From NCBI GenBank assembly GCA_964453435.1, contig CAYVQZ010000011.1:9235-73234 (forward strand): a DNA stretch of 64,000 nt, read 5' to 3'. Positions 2,371-47,970 of the stretch are shown piece by piece (position 1 is the stretch's first letter; each line of letters opens with the position of its first letter). Origin of the DNA: an uncultured bacterium (GTDB lineage Bacteria > Abyssobacteria > SURF-5). The notes under the pieces are model-generated. The model was not told the DNA's origin. It made no database searches and saw only the letters and a program-made list of their open reading frames with translations. The position numbers and the translations under genes were made by a program.

Positions 2371-5148
2371 TCAAAAGGTGTTCGTTGAGCCCTTGAACTC
2401 AATTCCCCGCGAAGGTCGCAGGCCGTCATCCCAGCCGCTGACGTTTTCCCTCAGCATGCCGAGCATGTCGAGGGTGTGCGGATCGTTTGGAATGACCCTG
2501 AGGATGGTGTTGCATGCGAGGAGCGCCCGGCGCATGTCGTTTTTGGCATGTGCGCGAGCGGCCTCGGCCAGATGAATCTCTCTGAACCGGTCTTCAAGTG
2601 ATTTGCGCAAGAGGAACGCTTCGAGATTTCCCGAGTCGGCCTTTTGGGCGAGACGTGTTTGATTAATTGCCTCTTCCAAAATGCCCTTGTTCCGCCAATA
2701 GTGAGCCGAAATCAAATGGTCCGAGGCGGTCATGAATCGCCGATATTTGCGTGCGTTCCGGATGGCCTCTTCTTCCGTGTCGCCGAAATGATACACGTAA
2801 GGCTCATTCATGCGGCTCTCGAAGATGAATTCGCCGAGGCCGGCGCCGTCATTGCGGAAGTATTCGATGTAGGGGTGGTTATCCGTGTTGATTGGAACAT
2901 CACGGAACAATGAAGCGGGCGCACTTTCGTTCATGAGGTGACATGCGAGAAGGTTATACGGATTGCCCAGGCCCACTCCTGCGAGCGCCTTTTGGACTTT
3001 CGGTTCGGACATTCGCTCTTCGAGATGTTTGAAGTCGATTGTAATGGGTTTTTCGGAGCCGATCAGCAGAAAATAGCCGCGGTCGCTGGTGAACCAAACC
3101 GAGAAATACGGAAACGAATGCCTGAACGTGTTGAAGAGCAACAGGTCCTCCTTGTATGAGAGCAGATGGTAGGGCACCCAAAGCGCCATGACTCCGCCGG
3201 GCCTCAATCTGTCGCTGCACATGTCGTAAAATTCCTTCGTATACAACGACACGTTTCCCGCAAACTTGGGAGATGTCGCGTCAACAGTGATTACATCAAA
3301 ATCCCTGTCGGTTCGAAGGAGATAGTTGCGCCCGTCTTCTATAATGAGGCTAAATCTCGGATCATTGAGGACATCGTGGTTTACGCTTCGGAGCAGGGGA
3401 GCGGCTTTTGGAACCTCGACGCACAGTTCGACGCAGGTTATGCTGTCGACATCGTACAAGCTGACGTTATATGAAGTTCCACCGGCGCCGAAACCGACGA
3501 TGCAGACATCCTTCGGTTCGCGGTGCAGCAACATGGGATAGTGCGCCAGCGCCCGCTGAATCTCTGGGCCCCGCATATTCATTATATTGCCCGAGCAGGC
3601 GACGGGATAGCCATCGATGCTGATTTCGCGAATTCCCGTGGACTTGTTGTCGAACACTTTAACGGTTGCCCCGATTCCTTCTTTGTAATAGACGACCTTG
3701 CCGATGTCTTCGAGGGGGCTGGTGAACTGGATGCCGGAGAGTCTGAAGACAGCTATGCCGAAGAACAACACCGCCGGCGCTGTCCCCACAAATATAAGAG
3801 CTTTTCTTCTTCCGTGTATATGGGGATGCATGAAATATGCTGTCGCTCCGACCACGACGTTTATGCACCCCAGAAGCAGGATGCTTTTCCCTATTCCCAG
3901 CAGGGGAATCAACACGAAGCCGGACGCGAACGAGCCGAGGATGCATCCGATCGTGTTTACGGAGTAAATCGTGCCGACGCTCTTTCCGATCCGCTGCAGG
4001 CTTTGCGCGCATATCCTCACGACAACGGGAAAAGTCGCTCCCATAAGAAACGCGGGAATCAGCATGGTCAAAGACGCCTTGACGAATTTGTTGGCGCTGG
4101 GAAGCCAGCTGATCACTCCGAACGACGGAAACAGCCGTTCGAGGCTATAGAAGAACTTTCCGAAAATGGGCAGGGAAAGGATCGCCGTGACACCTATCAA
4201 AACCTCGAGCGCGCAAAACAGCGAAAGCGCATCTTTGTTTCGGTCCGATATCTTGCCGAACACCAGGCTGCCGAGGCCGATACCCAGCAAAAACGTTGTC
4301 AACATTGTCGTGAACGCGTAAATGCTTATGTTCATGTGAAACAGGAGCGCGCGCATCCACAAAACCTCGTATGCGAGTGAACAGAAGCCGGAAATTCCAA
4401 ACAGCAGCATGACCATCATGACAATGCGCCGGGGATATTCCGCGCGGCTCTCACTCGGAGCGGCCGAAATCGAATCGGTTGCGGTCGCCTTCATGGGCAG
4501 CGTTCGCATTGCGGAGATGAGATACGTGAGGATGCCGACGGCAAGGTTTGCAATCACCGCAATATGGATGGTGCGAAGCACACCGAAGCGGCCGATGAGG
4601 AAAAAGCCCGCCGCCGCGCAGCCGGCGACCGCCCCCAAGGTGTTTATCGCATACAGGCTTCCGGTGCTCCAACTTATATCCTTCAGGCGGCTCGTCACGA
4701 ACTTGCTCAGCACGGGCAATGTCGCTCCCATCAAGGTTGTGGGCAGGAGCAACACGGCCACCGCCAGGACGAATCGTGACAGCGAAAGCATGTAAAACGA
4801 CGGGTTCTCTCCGCGAAACAGGAAAGCGTACAAAACGTCGAACCGGTTGAGCACGAAAGGCAATGCGAGCGCGTAAACGCCAATGCCTAATTCCAGAATA
4901 GCGTAAATTTTCAGGGGGTTCCGGCTCCGGTCAACGATGCGGCCGAACAGGTAGCTCCCGAACGCAAGCCCGCCCATAAAGGTGGTCAGCACGGCGCTCG
5001 TGGCAAAAACCGACGCCCCGAATATGAGGGTCAGCAGCCGAATCCACGTGACCTCGTAAAGGAGGCCACACATGCCGGACACGAAAAAGCATACCCACAA
5101 AAAAGCAATTACGAATTTTTGATATCTTGCTTCCGAATTTCCAACCAC
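2371..5148 (-). CDS. Fused MFS-like polytopic membrane domain / spermidine synthase-like (polyamine aminopropyltransferase family) protein with C-terminal TPR-like region
   Basis: 925 aa. About 450 aa of hydrophobic helices come first. A spermidine-synthase-like domain follows (GFGAGGTSYNV...CVELCVEV...DPRFSLIIEDGRNYL...DFDVITVDATSP...YTKEFY...LRPGGV). The C-terminus is helical repeats. Confidence 0.7.
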   Translation of the reverse strand: MVGNSEARYQKFVIAFLWVCFFVSGMCGLLYEVTWIRLLTLIFGASVFATSAVLTTFMGGLAFGSYLFGRIVDRSRNPLKIYAILELGIGVYALALPFVLNRFDVLYAFLFRGENPSFYMLSLSRFVLAVAVLLLPTTLMGATLPVLSKFVTSRLKDISWSTGSLYAINTLGAVAGCAAAGFFLIGRFGVLRTIHIAVIANLAVGILTYLISAMRTLPMKATATDSISAAPSESRAEYPRRIVMMVMLLFGISGFCSLAYEVLWMRALLFHMNISIYAFTTMLTTFLLGIGLGSLVFGKISDRNKDALSLFCALEVLIGVTAILSLPIFGKFFYSLERLFPSFGVISWLPSANKFVKASLTMLIPAFLMGATFPVVVRICAQSLQRIGKSVGTIYSVNTIGCILGSFASGFVLIPLLGIGKSILLLGCINVVVGATAYFMHPHIHGRRKALIFVGTAPAVLFFGIAVFRLSGIQFTSPLEDIGKVVYYKEGIGATVKVFDNKSTGIREISIDGYPVACSGNIMNMRGPEIQRALAHYPMLLHREPKDVCIVGFGAGGTSYNVSLYDVDSITCVELCVEVPKAAPLLRSVNHDVLNDPRFSLIIEDGRNYLLRTDRDFDVITVDATSPKFAGNVSLYTKEFYDMCSDRLRPGGVMALWVPYHLLSYKEDLLLFNTFRHSFPYFSVWFTSDRGYFLLIGSEKPITIDFKHLEERMSEPKVQKALAGVGLGNPYNLLACHLMNESAPASLFRDVPINTDNHPYIEYFRNDGAGLGEFIFESRMNEPYVYHFGDTEEEAIRNARKYRRFMTASDHLISAHYWRNKGILEEAINQTRLAQKADSGNLEAFLLRKSLEDRFREIHLAEAARAHAKNDMRRALLACNTILRVIPNDPHTLDMLGMLRENVSGWDDGLRPSRGIEFKGSTNTF

Positions 5149-5555: not shown

Positions 5556-5906
5556 ATCTGGCCCCACGATTTCCCGGCGGCCATTCAACCAACCCGCCAG
5601 CTCCGGGAGACCCGTGGGCAGAAAACCCGCTTCGCCAATCGTGAGACGGGCTGAGGAATCCGTCCCGCGATTGCCCGGCGAAGGGGACTGTGAGACTGTC
5701 CGATAATTCGATGTCCTGCGCTTCGGGGACAGTCCCTATTCTATCCCGCGAATGCGCTGGACTTCGCTCCGCTCAACGAAGGACGGGGGGATTCCGTAAA
5801 TAGTGACAGTCCCCTGCGCTCTGTTTTCGCGGACTTTCATAATTCTCGGACAGATTTCACTGTCCCCGAGGCAAACAAATTGCGTCATGAATCGTGGGAC
5901 ACACTC
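5556..5906. repeat. MITE-like mosaic intergenic repeat, copy A (long form)
   Basis: Shares both termini and internal modules with copy C at 33375-33728: GATTGCCCGGCGAAGGGGNCTGTGAGNCTGTCCGATAATTC ... GGGACAGTCCC ... CCCGAGGCAAACAANTTGCGTCATNAATCGTGGGACACACTC. It contains the palindrome GGGACAGTCCC and lies in the divergent region between the MFS/spermidine-synthase gene and gap. Confidence 0.6.
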
Positions 5907-8907: not shown

Positions 8908-11001
8908 ATGATTGAGAGAATTGAATTACAGTTAGGGCGAAACAAGCTCATAATGGAAACCGGTCACATGGCCAAACAGGCCGACGGAGCGGCGTGTGTC
9001 TTCTATGGCGATACGGGAGTGCTGGTGACCGTCGTGGCGTCGTCGGATGTCCGCGAGGGGATCGACTTCCTCCCGCTCACCGTCGATTATCGGGAGAAAA
9101 CCTACGCCGCCGGAAAAATTCCGGGAGGCTTCTTCAAGCGAGAGGGGAGACCGTCCGAAAAGGAGACGCTGACATCGAGGCTCATCGACCGGCCGTTGCG
9201 TCCCCTGTTTCCCGACGGACACATCAATGAGACACAAATAATGGCCACGGTCATATCGCACGACCAGGAAAACGACCCGGACGTTTTGTCAATCGTGGGG
9301 GCGTCGGCGGCGCTTGCGCTCTCCCGAATTCCCTTCACGAACTTTGTGGGCGCGGTGCGAGTCGGAAGGCTCAACGACGAATTCGTGGTGAATCCCACCT
9401 ACAAGGACTTGGAGGAGAGCGATATCGATCTCGTGGTTGCCGGGACAAAGAGAGCGATTACCATGGTTGAGGGCGGCGGCAGGGAAATCGACGAGGAGAC
9501 GATGATCGCTGCTCTTGAATTCGGCCACCAGATGCTGAAGGACACCATCTCGGCCCAAGAGGAGTTGGTGGCTCGCTGCGGCAAATTTAAGCTGCCCGCC
9601 CCCACAGTCAGCCTTGACGCCGACATCGTGTCGAAGGTTGAATCGTTCGCGAGCGCGAAATTGAGGGAGGTTCTTGTCATTGCGGATAAACTGAAGCGTC
9701 AGGAGACGACGCACTCCGTGTTCGAGGAAACCCTGCAGCAATTTCCCGATGCGGCCGACCCGGAACTCGCGCAAATCAAGGCCGCTTTCAGAAATCTCGA
9801 AAAGAAACTGCTCCGCAACATGATATTGAAAGAGCAGTTGCGGGTTGACGGCAGAGGACCGAAAGCCATACGGCCCATAAGCTGCGAGATTGGGCTGTTG
9901 CCCCGCGTCCATGGTTCGTCTCTGTTCACGAGGGGTGAAACGCAGGCTCTTGTCGCCACAACGCTCGGGACATCGACCGATGAGCAGATTATGGACTCGC
10001 TGTTCGGCGAATACAAAAAGACATTCATGCTTCACTACAATTTCCCGCCGTTCAGCGTGGGCGAGGTCAAGCCGATCCGAGGTCCCGGCCGCCGGGAAAT
10101 CGGGCACGGCGCTCTTGCCGAGCGTTCTCTCGACAGCATGATGCCCTCGTTCGAGGAGTTTCCTTACACGTTGCGGGTCGTTTCCGACATCCTCGAATCG
10201 AACGGGTCATCTTCCATGGCCACGGTCTGCGGCGCCACCCTGTCACTCATGGACGCAGGAGTTCCCATCAAGGAGCCCATCGCCGGTATCGCAATGGGAC
10301 TCGTTCAAGAAGGCGAACAGACAGTTATCCTGAGCGATATTTTGGGGATCGAGGACCATCTCGGCGACATGGACTTCAAAGTCGCCGGCAGCAAGAACGG
10401 CATCACCGGTTTCCAGCTCGACACAAAGACCGATGGACTGAACCTGCATGTTCTCGCTCAAGCTCTTGAGCAGGCGCGAGAGGGACGCCTCTTCATCCTG
10501 GAGAAGATGCTGGAAGCTATCGCGCGGCCGCGCGCGGAAATATCCAAACACGCTCCGAGAATCATTCACATGCGGATCGATCCCGAAAAGATACGGGATG
10601 TCATCGGTCCGGGCGGCCGCATTATTCGAGGCATTGTCAGCGACACCGGCGCCGAAATTAACGTTGAGGACGACGGCAGAGTGCTTATCGCTGCGGTCAA
10701 CCCGGAGGCCGGAGAAAAAGCATACAATATGATTCGGTCCCTGGTCGAAGAAGTCGAAGTGGGCAAAATCTATACCGGCAAGGTGAAACGAGTCCTGAAG
10801 TTCGGCGCCTTCGTGGAAATATTGCCCGGCAAGGAAGGGCTTGTTCACATATCCGAATTGAGCGACCACCGCGTGCGCCGGGTGGAAGATGTTCTCAACG
10901 AGGGTGACACGGTAACGGTGAAGTGCATCGAGATCGACCGGCAAAACCGTATCAACTTGAGCAAGCGGGCCGCAGACAAAGAGCTGGGCGTGGGAGCTTG
11001 A
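8908..11001 (+). CDS. pnp: Polynucleotide phosphorylase (polyribonucleotide nucleotidyltransferase)
   Basis: 697 aa with two RNase PH domains, a KH domain and a C-terminal S1 domain (GKVKRVLKFGAFVEILPGKEGLVHISEL). Follows rpsO, the canonical rpsO-pnp arrangement. Confidence 0.95.
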   Translation: MIERIELQLGRNKLIMETGHMAKQADGAACVFYGDTGVLVTVVASSDVREGIDFLPLTVDYREKTYAAGKIPGGFFKREGRPSEKETLTSRLIDRPLRPLFPDGHINETQIMATVISHDQENDPDVLSIVGASAALALSRIPFTNFVGAVRVGRLNDEFVVNPTYKDLEESDIDLVVAGTKRAITMVEGGGREIDEETMIAALEFGHQMLKDTISAQEELVARCGKFKLPAPTVSLDADIVSKVESFASAKLREVLVIADKLKRQETTHSVFEETLQQFPDAADPELAQIKAAFRNLEKKLLRNMILKEQLRVDGRGPKAIRPISCEIGLLPRVHGSSLFTRGETQALVATTLGTSTDEQIMDSLFGEYKKTFMLHYNFPPFSVGEVKPIRGPGRREIGHGALAERSLDSMMPSFEEFPYTLRVVSDILESNGSSSMATVCGATLSLMDAGVPIKEPIAGIAMGLVQEGEQTVILSDILGIEDHLGDMDFKVAGSKNGITGFQLDTKTDGLNLHVLAQALEQAREGRLFILEKMLEAIARPRAEISKHAPRIIHMRIDPEKIRDVIGPGGRIIRGIVSDTGAEINVEDDGRVLIAAVNPEAGEKAYNMIRSLVEEVEVGKIYTGKVKRVLKFGAFVEILPGKEGLVHISELSDHRVRRVEDVLNEGDTVTVKCIEIDRQNRINLSKRAADKELGVGA

Positions 11002-12339: not shown

Positions 12340-12662
12340 TTCGCCGAATGCGGTCAGTCCCGGGCGACGTCTCCGGTTGCTGATTTGCCATGCGGACAGG
12401 CTCACAGTGACTGTGCCCGACAATTTGCTGAGGTGTGCTTCGGGGGCAGTCCCGATTCTGCGGCGCTTCGTGCCCGTAAATCCGGGACAGTCCCTTGCGC
12501 TTGGCAATCGAGGGACGGATTCGCAGCCCGCCAATCTATCCCGCCTTTGTCAGGCGAGGCGTGTGACCCGCTCAGCGATGAAATAAGGGGGATTCCGTAA
12601 TTGGGTACAGCCCCCTCCGCTCGCGTTTTGGCAGAAAATTCGATTGTCGGGCAGGCTCACAG
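12340..12662. repeat. MITE-like mosaic intergenic repeat, copy B
   Basis: Shares modules with the other copies: GGGGGCAGTCCCGATTCT, TTCGTGCCCGTAAATCCGGGACAGTCCC, GCCAATCTATCCCGC, GGGGGATTCCGTAATTGGGTACAGCCCCC. Bounded by inverted ends (...GGCTCACAGTGACTGTGCCCGACAATTT / AATTCGATTGTCGGGCAGGCTCACAG). The small ORFs at 12377-12600 inside it are not credible. Confidence 0.6.
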
Positions 12663-31491: not shown

Positions 31492-32910
<1,419 letters not shown>

Positions 32911-33205: not shown

Positions 33206-33374
33206 TTATCTCCTTGTCATCGTTTCGCGCGACGGAATATCAAACCGTATGGCTGTCTGCGAAAACGATGAACTTCTGTCATGGTCTTTATGCTGCGTGT
33301 TTCGTAATGCCATGGCGGCGATGTGATGCGCAGCGCAGATGAAATCGAAACCGTCTCGCCGTCTACCCCGACAG

Positions 33375-33728
33375 AATCTGTCCCATGATTGCCCGGCGAA
33401 GGGGGCTGTGAGTCTGTCCGATAATTCCACTGGGTGGTCTCCTGCGCAGGGGACAGTCCCGATTCTATCCCGCGGATTGCGCGGGACTTCGTGCCCGTAA
33501 ATCTGGAACAGTGAAACTGTCTCGCGGCTGCGCATTTTGCCGAACAACAAGCTTTGGGGGCTGTACCCAATTACGGAATCCCCTGTCTTTTGCGCTGAGC
33601 GGAGCGAAGTCCCGCGCGTTCGCGGGATAGATTGGCGGACTGCCCCCAAAGCAGGGTATCCCGAATCGTGAGACACACTCACTGTTCCCGAGGCAAACAA
33701 CTTGCGTCATAAATCGTGGGACACACTC
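33375..33728. repeat. MITE-like mosaic intergenic repeat, copy C (long form)
   Basis: Co-linear with copy A at both termini. Also contains inverted copies of modules seen in copy B (GGGGGCTGTACCCAATTACGGAATCCCC, GCGGGATAGATTGGC). Terminal inverted repeat: left ...GAGTCTGTCCGATAATT, right AATCGTGGGACACACTC. Confidence 0.6.
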
Positions 33729-33819: not shown

Positions 33820-34890
33820 TCAGCCCTCTCTCTTTTGCCGCGTTTCGAGTATGGCGCGGACAAGCAGCGGCCACACGATTGTGGCGTCTGTGCGCACCTC
33901 GGCAAAACGGCCGCCCTCTTCCCTCGGCAAAAACTTCCCCCACGACACACCCTCGCTGTACGGACATCCGCTCAGCCCGCCCCAGTACGCGGGTTCCGGA
34001 CAGATTCGCACACCATACCGGATGCGGGGAATGGGCAGGTCCAGCCCCAGCCGCATATTAATTATGTCGATAAAGGGGCCCATCTGCTGACCCCAGTTTC
34101 TCGGAACTCCACCCCCGATCGTAAATATGCCCAGCCGCTCGGCTCGCACCACTCGTTTGGCGAAATCGTACAAATCGAGGAACGCATTGTACGGGGGCAC
34201 ATCGGAAAAGAACGCGTCGACATCCTTTTCCTTATCCGTTTTGTACTTGGCAGCCAGGAAATGCGTCGCTACATCGAGACCAAGCTCCGAATCGGTAAAC
34301 GCGGGGACATATATCGGGACCCCTTTCCGGTATGCGCATCCGAGAACACTCGGCATCAGGTCGTCCTGGAGCAGGCGCCGCCCGATCTCCGCATTCAACC
34401 TGTGCGAGCAGGCGGGCTCCGACCAGTCGACTTCGCTCAACACTTTTCGTATGAATTTCTCGGCGGCGGTAAGGTTCGCCTCCATCTCGAGCGTGTCGTA
34501 AACCCGGTTGTAGCCCCATTTATACAGCACGGTGTCGGGAGTTTTCGGGTCATACTTATAGTGCACGCATCCTATCGCCTCGGTCAGGCCATGCGCCATC
34601 AACGCGCCCGTGCTGACGATGATGTGCGCCATACCCTCATCTATCATTTCGCAGAGCACTTTGCCCATCTTTGCTATCGTCATGGCGCCCGACAGGGTGA
34701 CAATGATTGTGCAGGCGGGGTCCTCGACCATCTCGCGAAACACGAGATAGGCCTCGCCGAGTTCGCGTGCGCCGAAGGCGGTCTTCGACATCTGCGCAAG
34801 TATGTCCGCGACGTTGTCGGCGGACCGAACATCGATGGGTTCAAGCGGTTCGAGGCCGTCTTTGCGGCCGTCATGCATTTCTCGTTTCAA
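33820..34890 (-). CDS. Deoxyhypusine synthase-like protein
   Basis: 356 aa. Strong DHS-family similarity: CTIIVTLSGAMTIAKMGKVLCEMIDEGMAHIIVSTGALMAHG (NAD-binding core), FTIGGGVPRN, C-terminal EGVSWGKF. The 426-aa + strand ORF 33739-35019 is its shadow. Confidence 0.8.
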   Translation of the reverse strand: MKREMHDGRKDGLEPLEPIDVRSADNVADILAQMSKTAFGARELGEAYLVFREMVEDPACTIIVTLSGAMTIAKMGKVLCEMIDEGMAHIIVSTGALMAHGLTEAIGCVHYKYDPKTPDTVLYKWGYNRVYDTLEMEANLTAAEKFIRKVLSEVDWSEPACSHRLNAEIGRRLLQDDLMPSVLGCAYRKGVPIYVPAFTDSELGLDVATHFLAAKYKTDKEKDVDAFFSDVPPYNAFLDLYDFAKRVVRAERLGIFTIGGGVPRNWGQQMGPFIDIINMRLGLDLPIPRIRYGVRICPEPAYWGGLSGCPYSEGVSWGKFLPREEGGRFAEVRTDATIVWPLLVRAILETRQKREG

Positions 34891-42994: not shown

Positions 42995-43160
42995 CGACAT
43001 GAAATTGCCTCGGGGTTTGGTAATTTGTGCTTCCGGGACAGCGAGTGTGTCCGATAATTTCATCTGGCGGCTCTCTGCTCGAGACAGTCCCGAATCTATC
43101 CCGCGAAGCGCGGGACTCCGCGTTCGTAATTCTTGGGACAGTACCCTTTACAGTGCGTAA
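42995..43160. repeat. MITE-like mosaic intergenic repeat, copy D (short form)
   Basis: GAGTGTGTCCGATAATT terminus, GAGACAGTCCCGAATCTATCCCGCGAAGCGCGGGAC, GGGACAGTACCC. Lies between the 3' end of the FHA-GAF kinase gene and the AKR gene start. Confidence 0.55.
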
Positions 43161-45199: not shown

Positions 45200-45436
45200 C
45201 GCCCCAGAAATTTGCGTGCCCCGCGTGAAACGATGGAGGCGAGAACTGTCAGGCTGTCCGATAATTCATTAGCGCGCGCTTCGGGGACAGTCCCGATTCT
45301 ACGGCTCTTCGTGCCCGTAAATCTGGGACAGTCCCCTGCGCTCTCGTTTTCGGTCAAGCACATAATTGTCGGACAGATACAGAGTCCCTTTCGCCGGCGT
45401 TTCGGCAGAAAATGTGATTATCGGACAGTTTCGCTA
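45200..45436. repeat. MITE-like mosaic intergenic repeat, copy E
   Basis: Modules seen directly: GGCTGTCCGATAATTC, CGGGGACAGTCCCGATTCTACGG, TTCGTGCCCGTAAATCTGGGACAGTCCCCTGCGCTC, and inverted ends ATAATTGTCGGACAG / GATTATCGGACAG. Lies upstream of the kinase gene start. Confidence 0.55.
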
Positions 45437-47118: not shown

Positions 47119-47970
47119 CTAGTCGCCGAGACCGAGCCCGAACACCTTGTCTGCAGTCCTCCAGCAGATATTATCTCGGTGCGGTCTTTCGAGCGAGCGG
47201 ACAGCCTCGACTCTCCAAAAATATTTGTCTTCGGGAAAAATTCGGTCGCTCCCGAACATCAGGCGGCTGCTGTCTGTCCGTTCCAGAAGATAATTCAGAA
47301 CGCCCGGCTCTCGCGAACCTTCGGCTTCATGCAACTGCAATCCCTCGAGTTCAACGAAAACGTTTTCCCACAGGTCTATCAAGGCCGGAATTGTCTGCAG
47401 ATGCCCTCCGCCGGCATGCAGACACACGAGCTTCAGTTTCGGAAAGAGGGAGCAAACCTTTGCAAAATATACCGGGTTGCTGAGTTGTTCCATTGCCGGA
47501 TCGCCGCCCGTGTGAAACTGGATAGGAAGATTCTGCTCCTCGCAGTACTCGTAGAGCGGAAAGAATTCCTTCTGCGCCGGGTGGTGACCAAGGTAGGGAT
47601 ACAGAGTCTTTAAAGACTTCACAATGTGTCGCTTACCGGCGACCGTTTCTCGCACGCTTTTCAAACTTTTCTCCGGATTGCGCGAATCGAAAATGACCGC
47701 CGCAAAGAGCTTCGCCCGGCTTGTTTCCGTGTGCCGCTCAAAAACATCAAGGTTTCCCGGAGTGACCACAACCGACGCATCCACCCCCGCCCGCTCCATG
47801 TCCTTCAAGAGACTTTCGATGGGCTCTTCCATTTCCTCGGACGCCGGCTTCCTGAAAATAGCCGACAGTCCCCTGCGAAAAAACTCCGCCTGCGCGGAGA
47901 ACGGAACACAGTGCACGTGGGCGTCAATCAATTTCAATGAAACAACCTTTCTGCTCTCTCTCACTGGCAC
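47119..47970 (-). CDS. Amidohydrolase-2 family metal-dependent hydrolase (TIM barrel)
   Basis: 283 aa. N-terminal IDAHVHCVP His-His metal motif and internal HTGG. Only 3 nt separate it from the glgA region, and it abuts the upstream hypothetical gene, so it is likely co-transcribed. Confidence 0.7.
   Translation of the reverse strand: MPVRESRKVVSLKLIDAHVHCVPFSAQAEFFRRGLSAIFRKPASEEMEEPIESLLKDMERAGVDASVVVTPGNLDVFERHTETSRAKLFAAVIFDSRNPEKSLKSVRETVAGKRHIVKSLKTLYPYLGHHPAQKEFFPLYEYCEEQNLPIQFHTGGDPAMEQLSNPVYFAKVCSLFPKLKLVCLHAGGGHLQTIPALIDLWENVFVELEGLQLHEAEGSREPGVLNYLLERTDSSRLMFGSDRIFPEDKYFWRVEAVRSLERPHRDNICWRTADKVFGLGLGD

Follow-up and report, generated by a model that had tools for sequence, protein, structure and literature searches.

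The subject of this analysis is a family of nested hairpin repeats in a 64,000-nt stretch of DNA from an uncultured bacterium (GTDB lineage Bacteria; Abyssobacteria; SURF-5), covering positions 9,235 to 73,234 of contig CAYVQZ010000011.1 and referred to throughout as the window. The repeats occupy five intergenic sites, here designated A to E, which together hold approximately seven units in 64 kb (Table 1); the string GACAGTCCC is found eight times in the window against an expectation of 0.39, and always on the plus strand. We show that this is a dispersed hairpin family with a core shared across phyla, whose pairing is kept by compensatory changes, for which there is one insertion/deletion polymorphism and one empty orthologous spacer, and which is biased in its placement relative to genes.

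Five nested repeat sites in the window

The building block of the family is a half-site of about 20 nt, with the consensus GGGGAC(A/T)GTCCC(A)GA(T/A)T(C/T)TACG. Two inverted half-sites placed round a short, variable hairpin make up the canonical unit, an imperfect palindrome of 55-80 nt that reads as GGGGACAGTCCCGATTCTACG, the variable hairpin, and then CGTAAATCTGGGACAGTCCCC. The window sites are built as concentric inverted pairs: the innermost arms (GGGGACAGTCCCGATTCTA ... CCGTAAATCTGGGACAGTCCCC) are enclosed by a pair of modules that we call M1 (...CTGTCCGATAATT / AATTATCGGACAG...), and these are surrounded, in A and C, by a third shell formed of a ‘head’ (GAATCYGTCCC..GATTG, with the motif GAATCYGTCCC) and a ‘tail’ (AATCGTGGGACACACTC, also written GGGACACACTC). 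By local alignment, M1, head and tail are all diverged forms of the inner half-site, CTGTCCCAGA(A/T)TTAC, and most of these modules score better against the half-site consensus than their own shuffles do (p = 0.0005-0.03). Distance from the consensus grows from the centre to the outside, and scores for R1, a covariance model made from 57 diverse copies, drop from the inner units outward; the inner unit of A, with its 50-nt centre, lies beyond the reach of that model.

Table 1. Coordinates, composition and neighbouring genes of the repeat sites (window numbering)
Feature	Position	Strand	Modules, matches and remarks	Neighbouring genes
Upstream of A	5562-5647	+	degenerate head-like 5562-5580 (CCCCACGATTTCCCGGCGG); AATCGTGAGAC half-site 5637-5647	
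Composite A	5656-5906	+	251 nt; module positions from exact string search and likeness to C	divergent: MFS-spermidine synthase fusion / gap
A, modules			head 5656-5683; M1(+) 5684-5709; M1(-) 5838-5867; tail 5868-5906	
A, inner unit	5725-5814		left arm 5725-5743; 50-nt centre; right arm 5794-5814	
Composite B	12404-12662	+	R1 61.9 bits, E = 4.5e-15	two plus-strand genes: M16 peptidase / ftsK
B, outer modules			M1(+)-like 12404-12426; M1(-) 12636-12662	
B, inner parts			canonical unit 12440-12497; inverted head 12495-12522; long unit 12523-12615	
Composite C	33374-33728	+	355 nt; R1 match 33453-33512, 25.5 bits, E = 8e-5	convergent: beta-eliminating lyase / deoxyhypusine synthase
C, outer modules			head 33374-33401; M1(+) 33402-33427; M1(-)-like 33660-33689; tail 33690-33728	
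C, short unit	33449-33517		left arm 33449-33467; hairpin 33468-33486; degenerate right arm 33495-33517	
C, inverted long unit (after spacer)	33541-33650		hairpin 33610-33627	
C, long-unit arms (reverse complement)			right arm 33556-33576; left arm 33628-33646	
Site D	43035-43148	+	M1(+) 43035-43060; R1 34.7 bits, E = 2e-7	D and E flank a minus-strand FHA-GAF histidine kinase on either side
D, canonical unit	43078-43148		extra hairpin TCCCGCGAAGCGCGGGA at 43099-43115	
Site E	45242-45434	+	R1 75.3 bits, E = 7.5e-19	see site D
E, modules			M1(+) 45242-45267; near-consensus canonical unit 45281-45338; M1(-) 45361-45388 and 45414-45434	

A first-pass annotation of this DNA had described A and C as copies of one element of about 350 bp, with fixed termini and a variable interior. 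The common ends are real: A 5656-5709 and C 33374-33427 are 91% identical over 54 nt (about 40 nt if counted from 5670 and 33388), and A 5857-5906 and C 33679-33728 are 94% identical over 50 nt. The start then given for A, position 5556, is wrong, as the motif quoted for it, GATTGCCCGG, sits at 5670 and likeness to C runs from 5656; read directly, the start motif GATTGCCCGGCGAAGGGG is found at 33388 in C and at 5670 in A. The fragments listed upstream of A in Table 1 are probably the reason for the earlier placement. Since A measures 251 nt and C 355 nt, there is no unit with a fixed length of about 350 bp either. The variable interior, on the other hand, is borne out by pairwise alignment, with identities of 73-100% at the ends and of 3-47% in the interior, which consists mostly of gaps; high identity in this global alignment is limited to the first ~120 and last ~65 columns. 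Within the window, blastn matches 5656-5766 to 33374-33491 (81%, E = 2e-21) and tail to tail (5857-5906 with 33679-33728, E = 1e-14), and it also matches A 5683-5829 to the reverse complement of C 33541-33689 (73%, E = 7e-21), such that the surplus ~100 nt of C is an inverted A-like unit. Inverted modules of copy B had likewise been reported within C, and both are present: 12581-12636 is 79% complementary to 33535-33590, and 12523-12544 is 95% complementary to 33622-33643.

Both composites fold from end to end as a single long imperfect hairpin (A, minimum free energy -110.6 kcal/mol, z = -5.7; C, -170.2 kcal/mol, z = -8.5), and their ‘fixed termini’ are therefore mutual inverted repeats; they are, moreover, divergent versions of the half-site from which the inner ~60-nt element is made, and it is this small element, not the composite, that recurs elsewhere. 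Among the window sites the shared head and tail ends are found in two copies only, A and C. In B, the inverted head is 86% complementary to 5656-5691, and the fold pairs 12404-12425 with 12637-12660; the hairpin at E has a minimum free energy of about -31 kcal/mol (z of about -5.5). As regards direct repeats beside the two long copies, TGAG stands on both sides of A and GACA/GATA flank C; these 4-mers are suggestive of target-site duplication, if weakly so, and a duplication is not demonstrable from them. The concentric composites of the window appear to be a clear case of repeats nesting in their own apex.

The core unit outside the window

GTDB genomes were scanned with a pattern comprising M1 plus core, and a pattern for the inner unit was run on metagenome and viral contigs. 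The former was rejected as a collection pattern for being too lineage-specific, with a single GTDB match (the closest metagenome-assembled genome, MAG, CAZSKP01) and none in metagenomes. The inner-unit pattern is found in at least 120 metagenome contigs, with wholly unrelated flanks, and also in 14 IMG/VR viral contigs, with up to three copies in 13 kb (L140, L146). Hosts were assigned through exact-protein clusters, and include Nitrospirota (enolase, DnaJ, CbiQ), Thermodesulfobacteriota/Desulfobacterales (NuoM, a DUF4388 protein, LarE, ArsS) and Candidatus Desantisbacteria (CysS); the proteins of the window itself are nearest to those of Abyssubacteria, Hydrogenedentota and Lindowbacteria MAGs, at 64-85% identity. 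There is one cluster per locus in 105 of the 120 loci. Conservation of at least 90% across phyla extends to the positions that the search pattern left free (GGGGACA on the left side, TCCCC on the right), and one element with near-identical arms is present in Nitrospirota, Thermodesulfobacteriota, Desantisbacteria, a Hydrogenedentota-like genome (that of the window) and phage contigs.

The collected copies define a common hairpin, the base of which is a 12-pair helix, interrupted at its centre by a single A-A (or U-U) mismatch and followed by a one-base bulge; above this come four pairs, a bulge on the opposite strand, four or more further pairs, and the variable apex. Canonical units fold at approximately -28 to -32 kcal/mol (z = -4.3 to -5.6). 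In an alignment of 57 sequences, 98.2% of cells are paired, versus 93.2% for shuffles and at most 52% for slid partners, and compensatory base changes keep the pairing of the core unit. Thus, pair 17-50 occurs as UA (44 sequences) or AU (13) and is never unpaired, where the search pattern permitted all four combinations; pair 24-43 occurs as AU (39), GC (10) and CG (5), and pair 25-42 as CG (45), GC (5), AU (4) and UA (2). The 78 distinct centres, 10-41 nt long, are mutually unrelated, and yet nearly all of them fold as hairpins. Inside one such centre (L088, 694-761), part of the right arm is duplicated (CGTAAATCTGGGGAC), which points to slippage or to partial re-insertion in the element itself.

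Placement relative to genes is far from even. With ‘sense’ taken as the reverse complement of the window's plus-strand orientation, copies with co-directional neighbour genes number 31 sense and 4 antisense (from crude calls of open reading frames, ORFs), and 24 sense versus 8 antisense when collapsed to 81 independent flank clusters; where an ORF of at least 100 aa begins no more than 30 nt downstream (110 copies surveyed), the counts are 37 and 9. Copies cluster 5-40 nt upstream of start codons, whilst the distance from the preceding stop codon to the element is broad. Of 78 cases, 67 show better folding of the centre on the sense strand, and G-U wobbles number 36 on that strand versus 21 on the other (p = 0.06); the data points behind both of these asymmetries are not independent, and we regard them as suggestive only. 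Set against the orientation rule, the window's own sites are mixed: D and E conform, A and C are neutral, and B is opposite. Two loci have the element 26-41 nt upstream of a phage gene, tail sheath in L109 and tail tube in L116, after a good Shine-Dalgarno sequence. At a further locus (L104, 6250-6450), a near-consensus promoter (TTGACA-17-TATACT) stands on one side of the element and a tRNA gene on the other; this copy has the minority, antisense orientation, and would there be part of the tRNA leader transcript.

All of the copies checked are intergenic; certain gene calls extend into the element or across it. An ORF of 164 aa called over copy C (window 33206-33700, minus strand) is spurious; in L161-L166 (700-900), the ORF called before cbiQ, in the position of cbiN and with no Pfam match on record, crosses the element, and one CbiQ start is called within it, such that gene callers read through the repeat.

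The family is unannotated, and is unusually widespread for its class. At gathering thresholds, Rfam has no matches in the window, and a search of ten canonical-copy loci at E values up to 1 gave only chance eukaryotic matches away from the element. No tRNA or tmRNA was found in the window; PLSDB plasmids hold no match to the core element; and a full-text literature search with the core sequence and variants of it, which also covered supplementary files of the Geobacter metallireducens genome paper, returned only unrelated primer matches. A linked gene family was sought by clustering 907 ORFs from the loci, which yielded only generic families (response regulators, CHASE2 cyclases, ABC ATPases, RtcB/archease); for the viral contigs, crude ORF calling left the gene context too noisy to be informative.

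Several loci carry further repeats beside the element. Tandem heptamers lie sense-5' of it in Thermodesulfobacteriota loci (L151-L160, at about 1380-1500, and L008, L009, L017, L028 and L042); these heptamers (GCAGTAG/GCAGTAA/GCACTAA) vary in number between samples, and the mnmA-larE spacer accordingly measures 114 or 128 nt. Elsewhere (L013, L027, L043, L124), other hairpin modules, such as AGAGATGCGAAGCATCTCATGTCAGCGGCGACTCGCCGCC and GGTGCGATTATCGGACGGACC, recur 100-250 nt downstream; mosaic clusters resembling bacterial interspersed mosaic elements (BIMEs) are therefore found outside the window's lineage too. In L033 and L062, an outer inverted pair of diverged sequence (AATCCAGGGACAC ... 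GCGTCCCGATTTT) encloses a canonical unit, which makes these a second instance of concentric nesting.

Presence and absence at orthologous sites

One comparison comes from dnaJ in Nitrospirota. Locus L041 has the unit between promoter region and Shine-Dalgarno sequence, 21 nt upstream of the start codon; it is missing at this position from eight contigs whose DnaJ falls in the same 90%-identity cluster. The flanks are near-identical, the empty allele reading GGAC-AAAA-TCGGAGG and the filled one GGAT-[unit + AGCCTTT]-AAATCGGAGG.

A second, more distant comparison concerns site E, where the spacer between the GT5 glycogen synthase and histidine kinase genes measures 500 nt in the window versus 86 nt, without the element, in the closest genome (CAZSKP01, L149); the locus is syntenic, its histidine kinase being 68% and its glycogen synthase 67% identical. 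A comparison with relatives upstream of gap had been proposed in the first-pass annotation; in the Hydrogenedentota genome CP070779, gap-pgk-rpsO-pnp is syntenic, GAPDH is 85% identical and the gap promoter (TTGACT-17-CATAAT) is kept, and R1 has no match in the 21 kb round gap, but a 100-N gap lies 216-316 nt upstream of the gene (L167, 9685-9784). The corresponding comparison at the deoxyhypusine synthase locus of Abyssubacteria found no synteny downstream of that gene. At closer range, a strain that is 97.8% identical to the window keeps the tail of C. Three independent short-read assemblies (L001, L133, L134) end inside A or C, at 5793, 33637 and 33656; together with the 100-N gap in CP070779, these breaks indicate that the repeats limit assembly.

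A proposed mobile hairpin and its alternatives

Synthesising these findings, we marginally favour a model in which A and C are composites of a nested hairpin repeat family whose unit is a non-autonomous mobile element, of the repetitive extragenic palindrome (REP)/REPIN kind or resembling a transposable element of the miniature inverted-repeat type (MITE). We suggest that the core unit would be moved in trans by an enzyme encoded outside the window, with the single-stranded hairpin as its active form, and that it would survive chiefly in places immediately upstream of a ribosome-binding site and transcribed in one orientation; in such places, the helix of about 22 bp may serve as an mRNA processing or stabilising hairpin. 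Composites, we speculate, would arise when units land or are duplicated inside the centres of older units, which would generate concentric shells (from outside to inside: head/tail, the M1 pair, the core arms), with the older, outer shells the more diverged. A and C share their two outer layers and first inner modules in the same order, from which it follows that one composite was perhaps copied whole; most likely this would have been as a block, via its outer arms, after which the inverted unit would have been gained in C or lost in A. The claim that the repeat was mobile and not regulatory is thus upheld in one respect, in that this is a dispersed repeat behaving like mobile DNA; the choice itself was drawn too sharply, as the core's orientation and position bias relative to genes suggests action or selection at the transcript level too.

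A number of observations weigh against this model. The near-identity of the arms across phyla is partly imposed by the exact search pattern, and copy number elsewhere is modest, with about 10 more copies in 780 kb (approximately one per 70 kb by R1). No transposase, integrase or reverse transcriptase was found among the more than 40 ORFs of the window, which is a housekeeping region; neither does any of these recur near the 120 loci, and no transposase or integrase was seen in the loci that were fetched. The insertion at dnaJ lacks a clean target-site duplication and has 7 extra nt on one side, and it forms the only filled/empty pair, with no other among the fetched loci or at larE and cbiQ; those last two loci carry the unit in every case, and long vertical persistence is therefore common. 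The block copying of A and C rests on two copies only. Finally, the window units are all on the plus strand regardless of the strand of the genes, B being antisense to both of its neighbours, so that the rule of orientation relative to genes breaks down here and a replication-strand effect is possible.

The main rival, and one that is compatible with a mobile element, holds that the unit is chiefly a functional transcript element whose sequence selection has conserved. It would be a bulged RNA helix of about 22 bp in 5' untranslated regions (UTRs) and in the spacers of operons, serving perhaps for RNase III-type processing, for mRNA stabilisation or for protein binding, with mobility secondary and the window composites as local elaborations. 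The gene-relative orientation bias and clustering 5-40 nt upstream of start codons speak for it, as do the copies before the phage tail sheath and tail tube genes, the position of the dnaJ copy between promoter and Shine-Dalgarno sequence, the compensatory pairs, the conservation (at least 90%) of the free arm positions across phyla, and the persistence of the unit at the larE and cbiQ loci; the better folding of the centre on the gene-sense strand (67/78) and the excess of G-U wobbles there (36 versus 21, p = 0.06) point in the same direction, but these strand-asymmetry tests are weak, their data points not being independent. Against it, the genes downstream are unrelated (enolase, DnaJ, FabD, CysS, NuoM, Cas3, LigD, phage tail genes), close relatives manage without the unit at dnaJ, and no Rfam family matches; in the window, copies lie 90-500 nt from gene starts, with C between convergent genes and B antisense to its neighbours. 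On balance, we consider it rather unlikely that a transcript function is the chief explanation.

The readings that remain are less probable still. That A and C might be discrete miniature inverted-repeat elements of about 350 bp, with fixed termini, moved in double-stranded form by a DDE transposase and making short duplications, would account for their shared head and tail, for the mutual inversion of their ends (GA(A/G)T..GTCCC), and for the TGAG on both sides of A and the GACA/GATA beside C; we judge this improbable, in view of lengths that differ (251 versus 355 nt) between only two copies, a 4-bp duplication present in one and imperfect in the other, three other sites without these ends, and ends that are themselves diverged half-sites of the small unit. 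An interior that is palindromic up to the apex is, besides, not needed by a DDE-type element, and in the fetched loci neither a parent insertion sequence nor a transposase was found. The dyad GGGAC(A/T)GTCCC in each arm, in intergenic DNA near promoters, could also be taken as an 11-bp palindromic site (GGGAC-N-GTCCC) for a dimeric regulator or nucleoid protein, with the repeats as double-stranded operator arrays; but dyad-to-dyad spacing is not constant (about 36-70 bp), the variable centre is invariably self-complementary, with compensatory changes (duplex binding needs neither), the unit is present or absent at dnaJ, and four or more phyla carry it without a common regulon, all of which makes this very unlikely. 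Least credible are coincidentally similar intrinsic terminators: C does lie between convergent genes, and the stems are stable and GC-rich, but no T-run follows the element on either strand, the 3' flank profile is without T enrichment, a terminator scan at the units gave chance level, and most copies are in operons or 5' UTRs, with only 4-6 of the classified sites between convergent genes. Two further candidates were rejected. A portable promoter, for which the sense arm offers TAGAAT, would have its -35-like box 10-40 nt off, varying with the centre, and at dnaJ both alleles possess a promoter of their own upstream; CRISPR is ruled out because the copies are solitary and do not form regularly spaced arrays.

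Of the known systems to which a mobile hairpin might belong, the closest are the REP, BIME and REPIN sequences of enterobacteria and Pseudomonas, which are likewise short extragenic imperfect palindromes in which two inverted half-units form a REPIN hairpin of about 60-110 nt; the unit here has the corresponding hairpin of some 20 conserved base pairs with a variable apex. Shared, too, are the BIME habit of mosaic clusters of several motif types in both orientations, the lack of a demonstrable target-site duplication, transcription within operons, and the breaking of assemblies at these repeats. REP and REPIN sequences are mobilised by RAYT Y1 transposases, whose gene usually has REPs on its flanks, and a conserved GTAG marks the 5' foot of each REP hairpin. 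Here GTAG is not at the foot of the hairpin but is confined to the interior of one arm (CCGTAGAATC, sense strand), 13 nt from the end, with GTAA in the other arm; no conserved tetranucleotide is found in the flanks of the copies, and no RAYT gene (Y1 transposase, PF01797) was seen among the more than 40 window ORFs or the recurrent families of the 120 loci. REP sequences are lineage-specific and number tens to hundreds per genome, whereas the arms here are near-identical across phyla, in a copy number that looks lower outside this genome, with a strong bias to the 5' side of genes and a concentric (‘onion-like’) as opposed to tandem layout. Correia/NEMIS repeats of Neisseria and ERIC/IRU repeats of enterobacteria resemble the unit as non-autonomous, co-transcribed hairpin repeats near gene starts, theirs measuring 100-150 nt, and in ERIC, as here, sequence is conserved while locations differ between species. 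Both kinds of hairpin are cut by RNase III or RNase E and change mRNA stability in an orientation-dependent manner. They have TA duplications, defined terminal repeats and non-palindromic interiors, whereas the present unit is half the size, self-complementary throughout and without a demonstrable duplication; terminal inverted repeats, as in MITEs, are found in the unit arms and at the ends of A and C, and no flanking repeat is conserved across 110 copies.

Integron attC sites offer a structural parallel, being imperfect palindromes with a conserved lower stem, bulges on both strands and a terminal structure of variable length, that are active as a folded single strand and lie just upstream of the next ORF. 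We rejected an attC identity: the ends are GGGGAC ... GTCCCC with no RYYYAAC/GTTRRRY core sites, there are no cassette arrays (one cluster in 105 of 120 loci, mostly one copy per several kilobases) and no integrase was seen nearby. The nested layout has a known precedent in insertion sequences directed to the loops of palindromic units. Targeting of the apex, in the manner of IS1397 or ISKpn1, would yield concentric layers like those of A, B, C and E; elements of the IS1397 and ISKpn1 type are complete insertion sequences that encode a transposase, whereas here the same small repeat would be both insert and target.

We also entertain, more tentatively than the mobile-element model itself, the idea that the ~60-nt GACAGTCCC hairpin may be an undescribed, horizontally spreading element, recognised as a folded single strand by an equally widespread enzyme or RNA-binding protein, in at least four phyla and in their phages. 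Such an element would prefer to insert, or to be retained, in the transcribed sense strand just upstream of ribosome-binding sites and in its own older apexes, and, if real, would amount to a new module for mobilisation or gene expression, not to another lineage-specific REP. Hairpin repeats such as REP, BIME, Correia and ERIC affect mRNA stability, genome rearrangement and assembly quality, and, to our knowledge, the known small hairpin repeat families are each limited to a narrow lineage. Were the cross-phylum pattern to hold, it would imply either that a mobilising enzyme has been transferred broadly or that the hairpin is read by a conserved host factor; the element would be a marker for insertion polymorphism in uncultured anaerobes, and would account for the breaks in MAG and Logan contigs at these spots.

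Some minor features of the window may be recorded here. A weak R1 match at 32508-32544 (17.5 bits, E = 0.014), inside the beta-eliminating lyase gene and comprising the outer dyad only, is probably due to chance, and a fragment at 47851-47877, within an amidohydrolase ORF, was also taken as chance. The gene at 2371-5148 (minus strand) encodes a 925-aa fusion of an MFS-like transporter domain (below the Pfam cut-off) and a spermidine-synthase domain, and that at 33820-34890 (minus strand) a bacterial homologue of deoxyhypusine synthase; these two form a polyamine-related pair, each member of which adjoins a long composite repeat.

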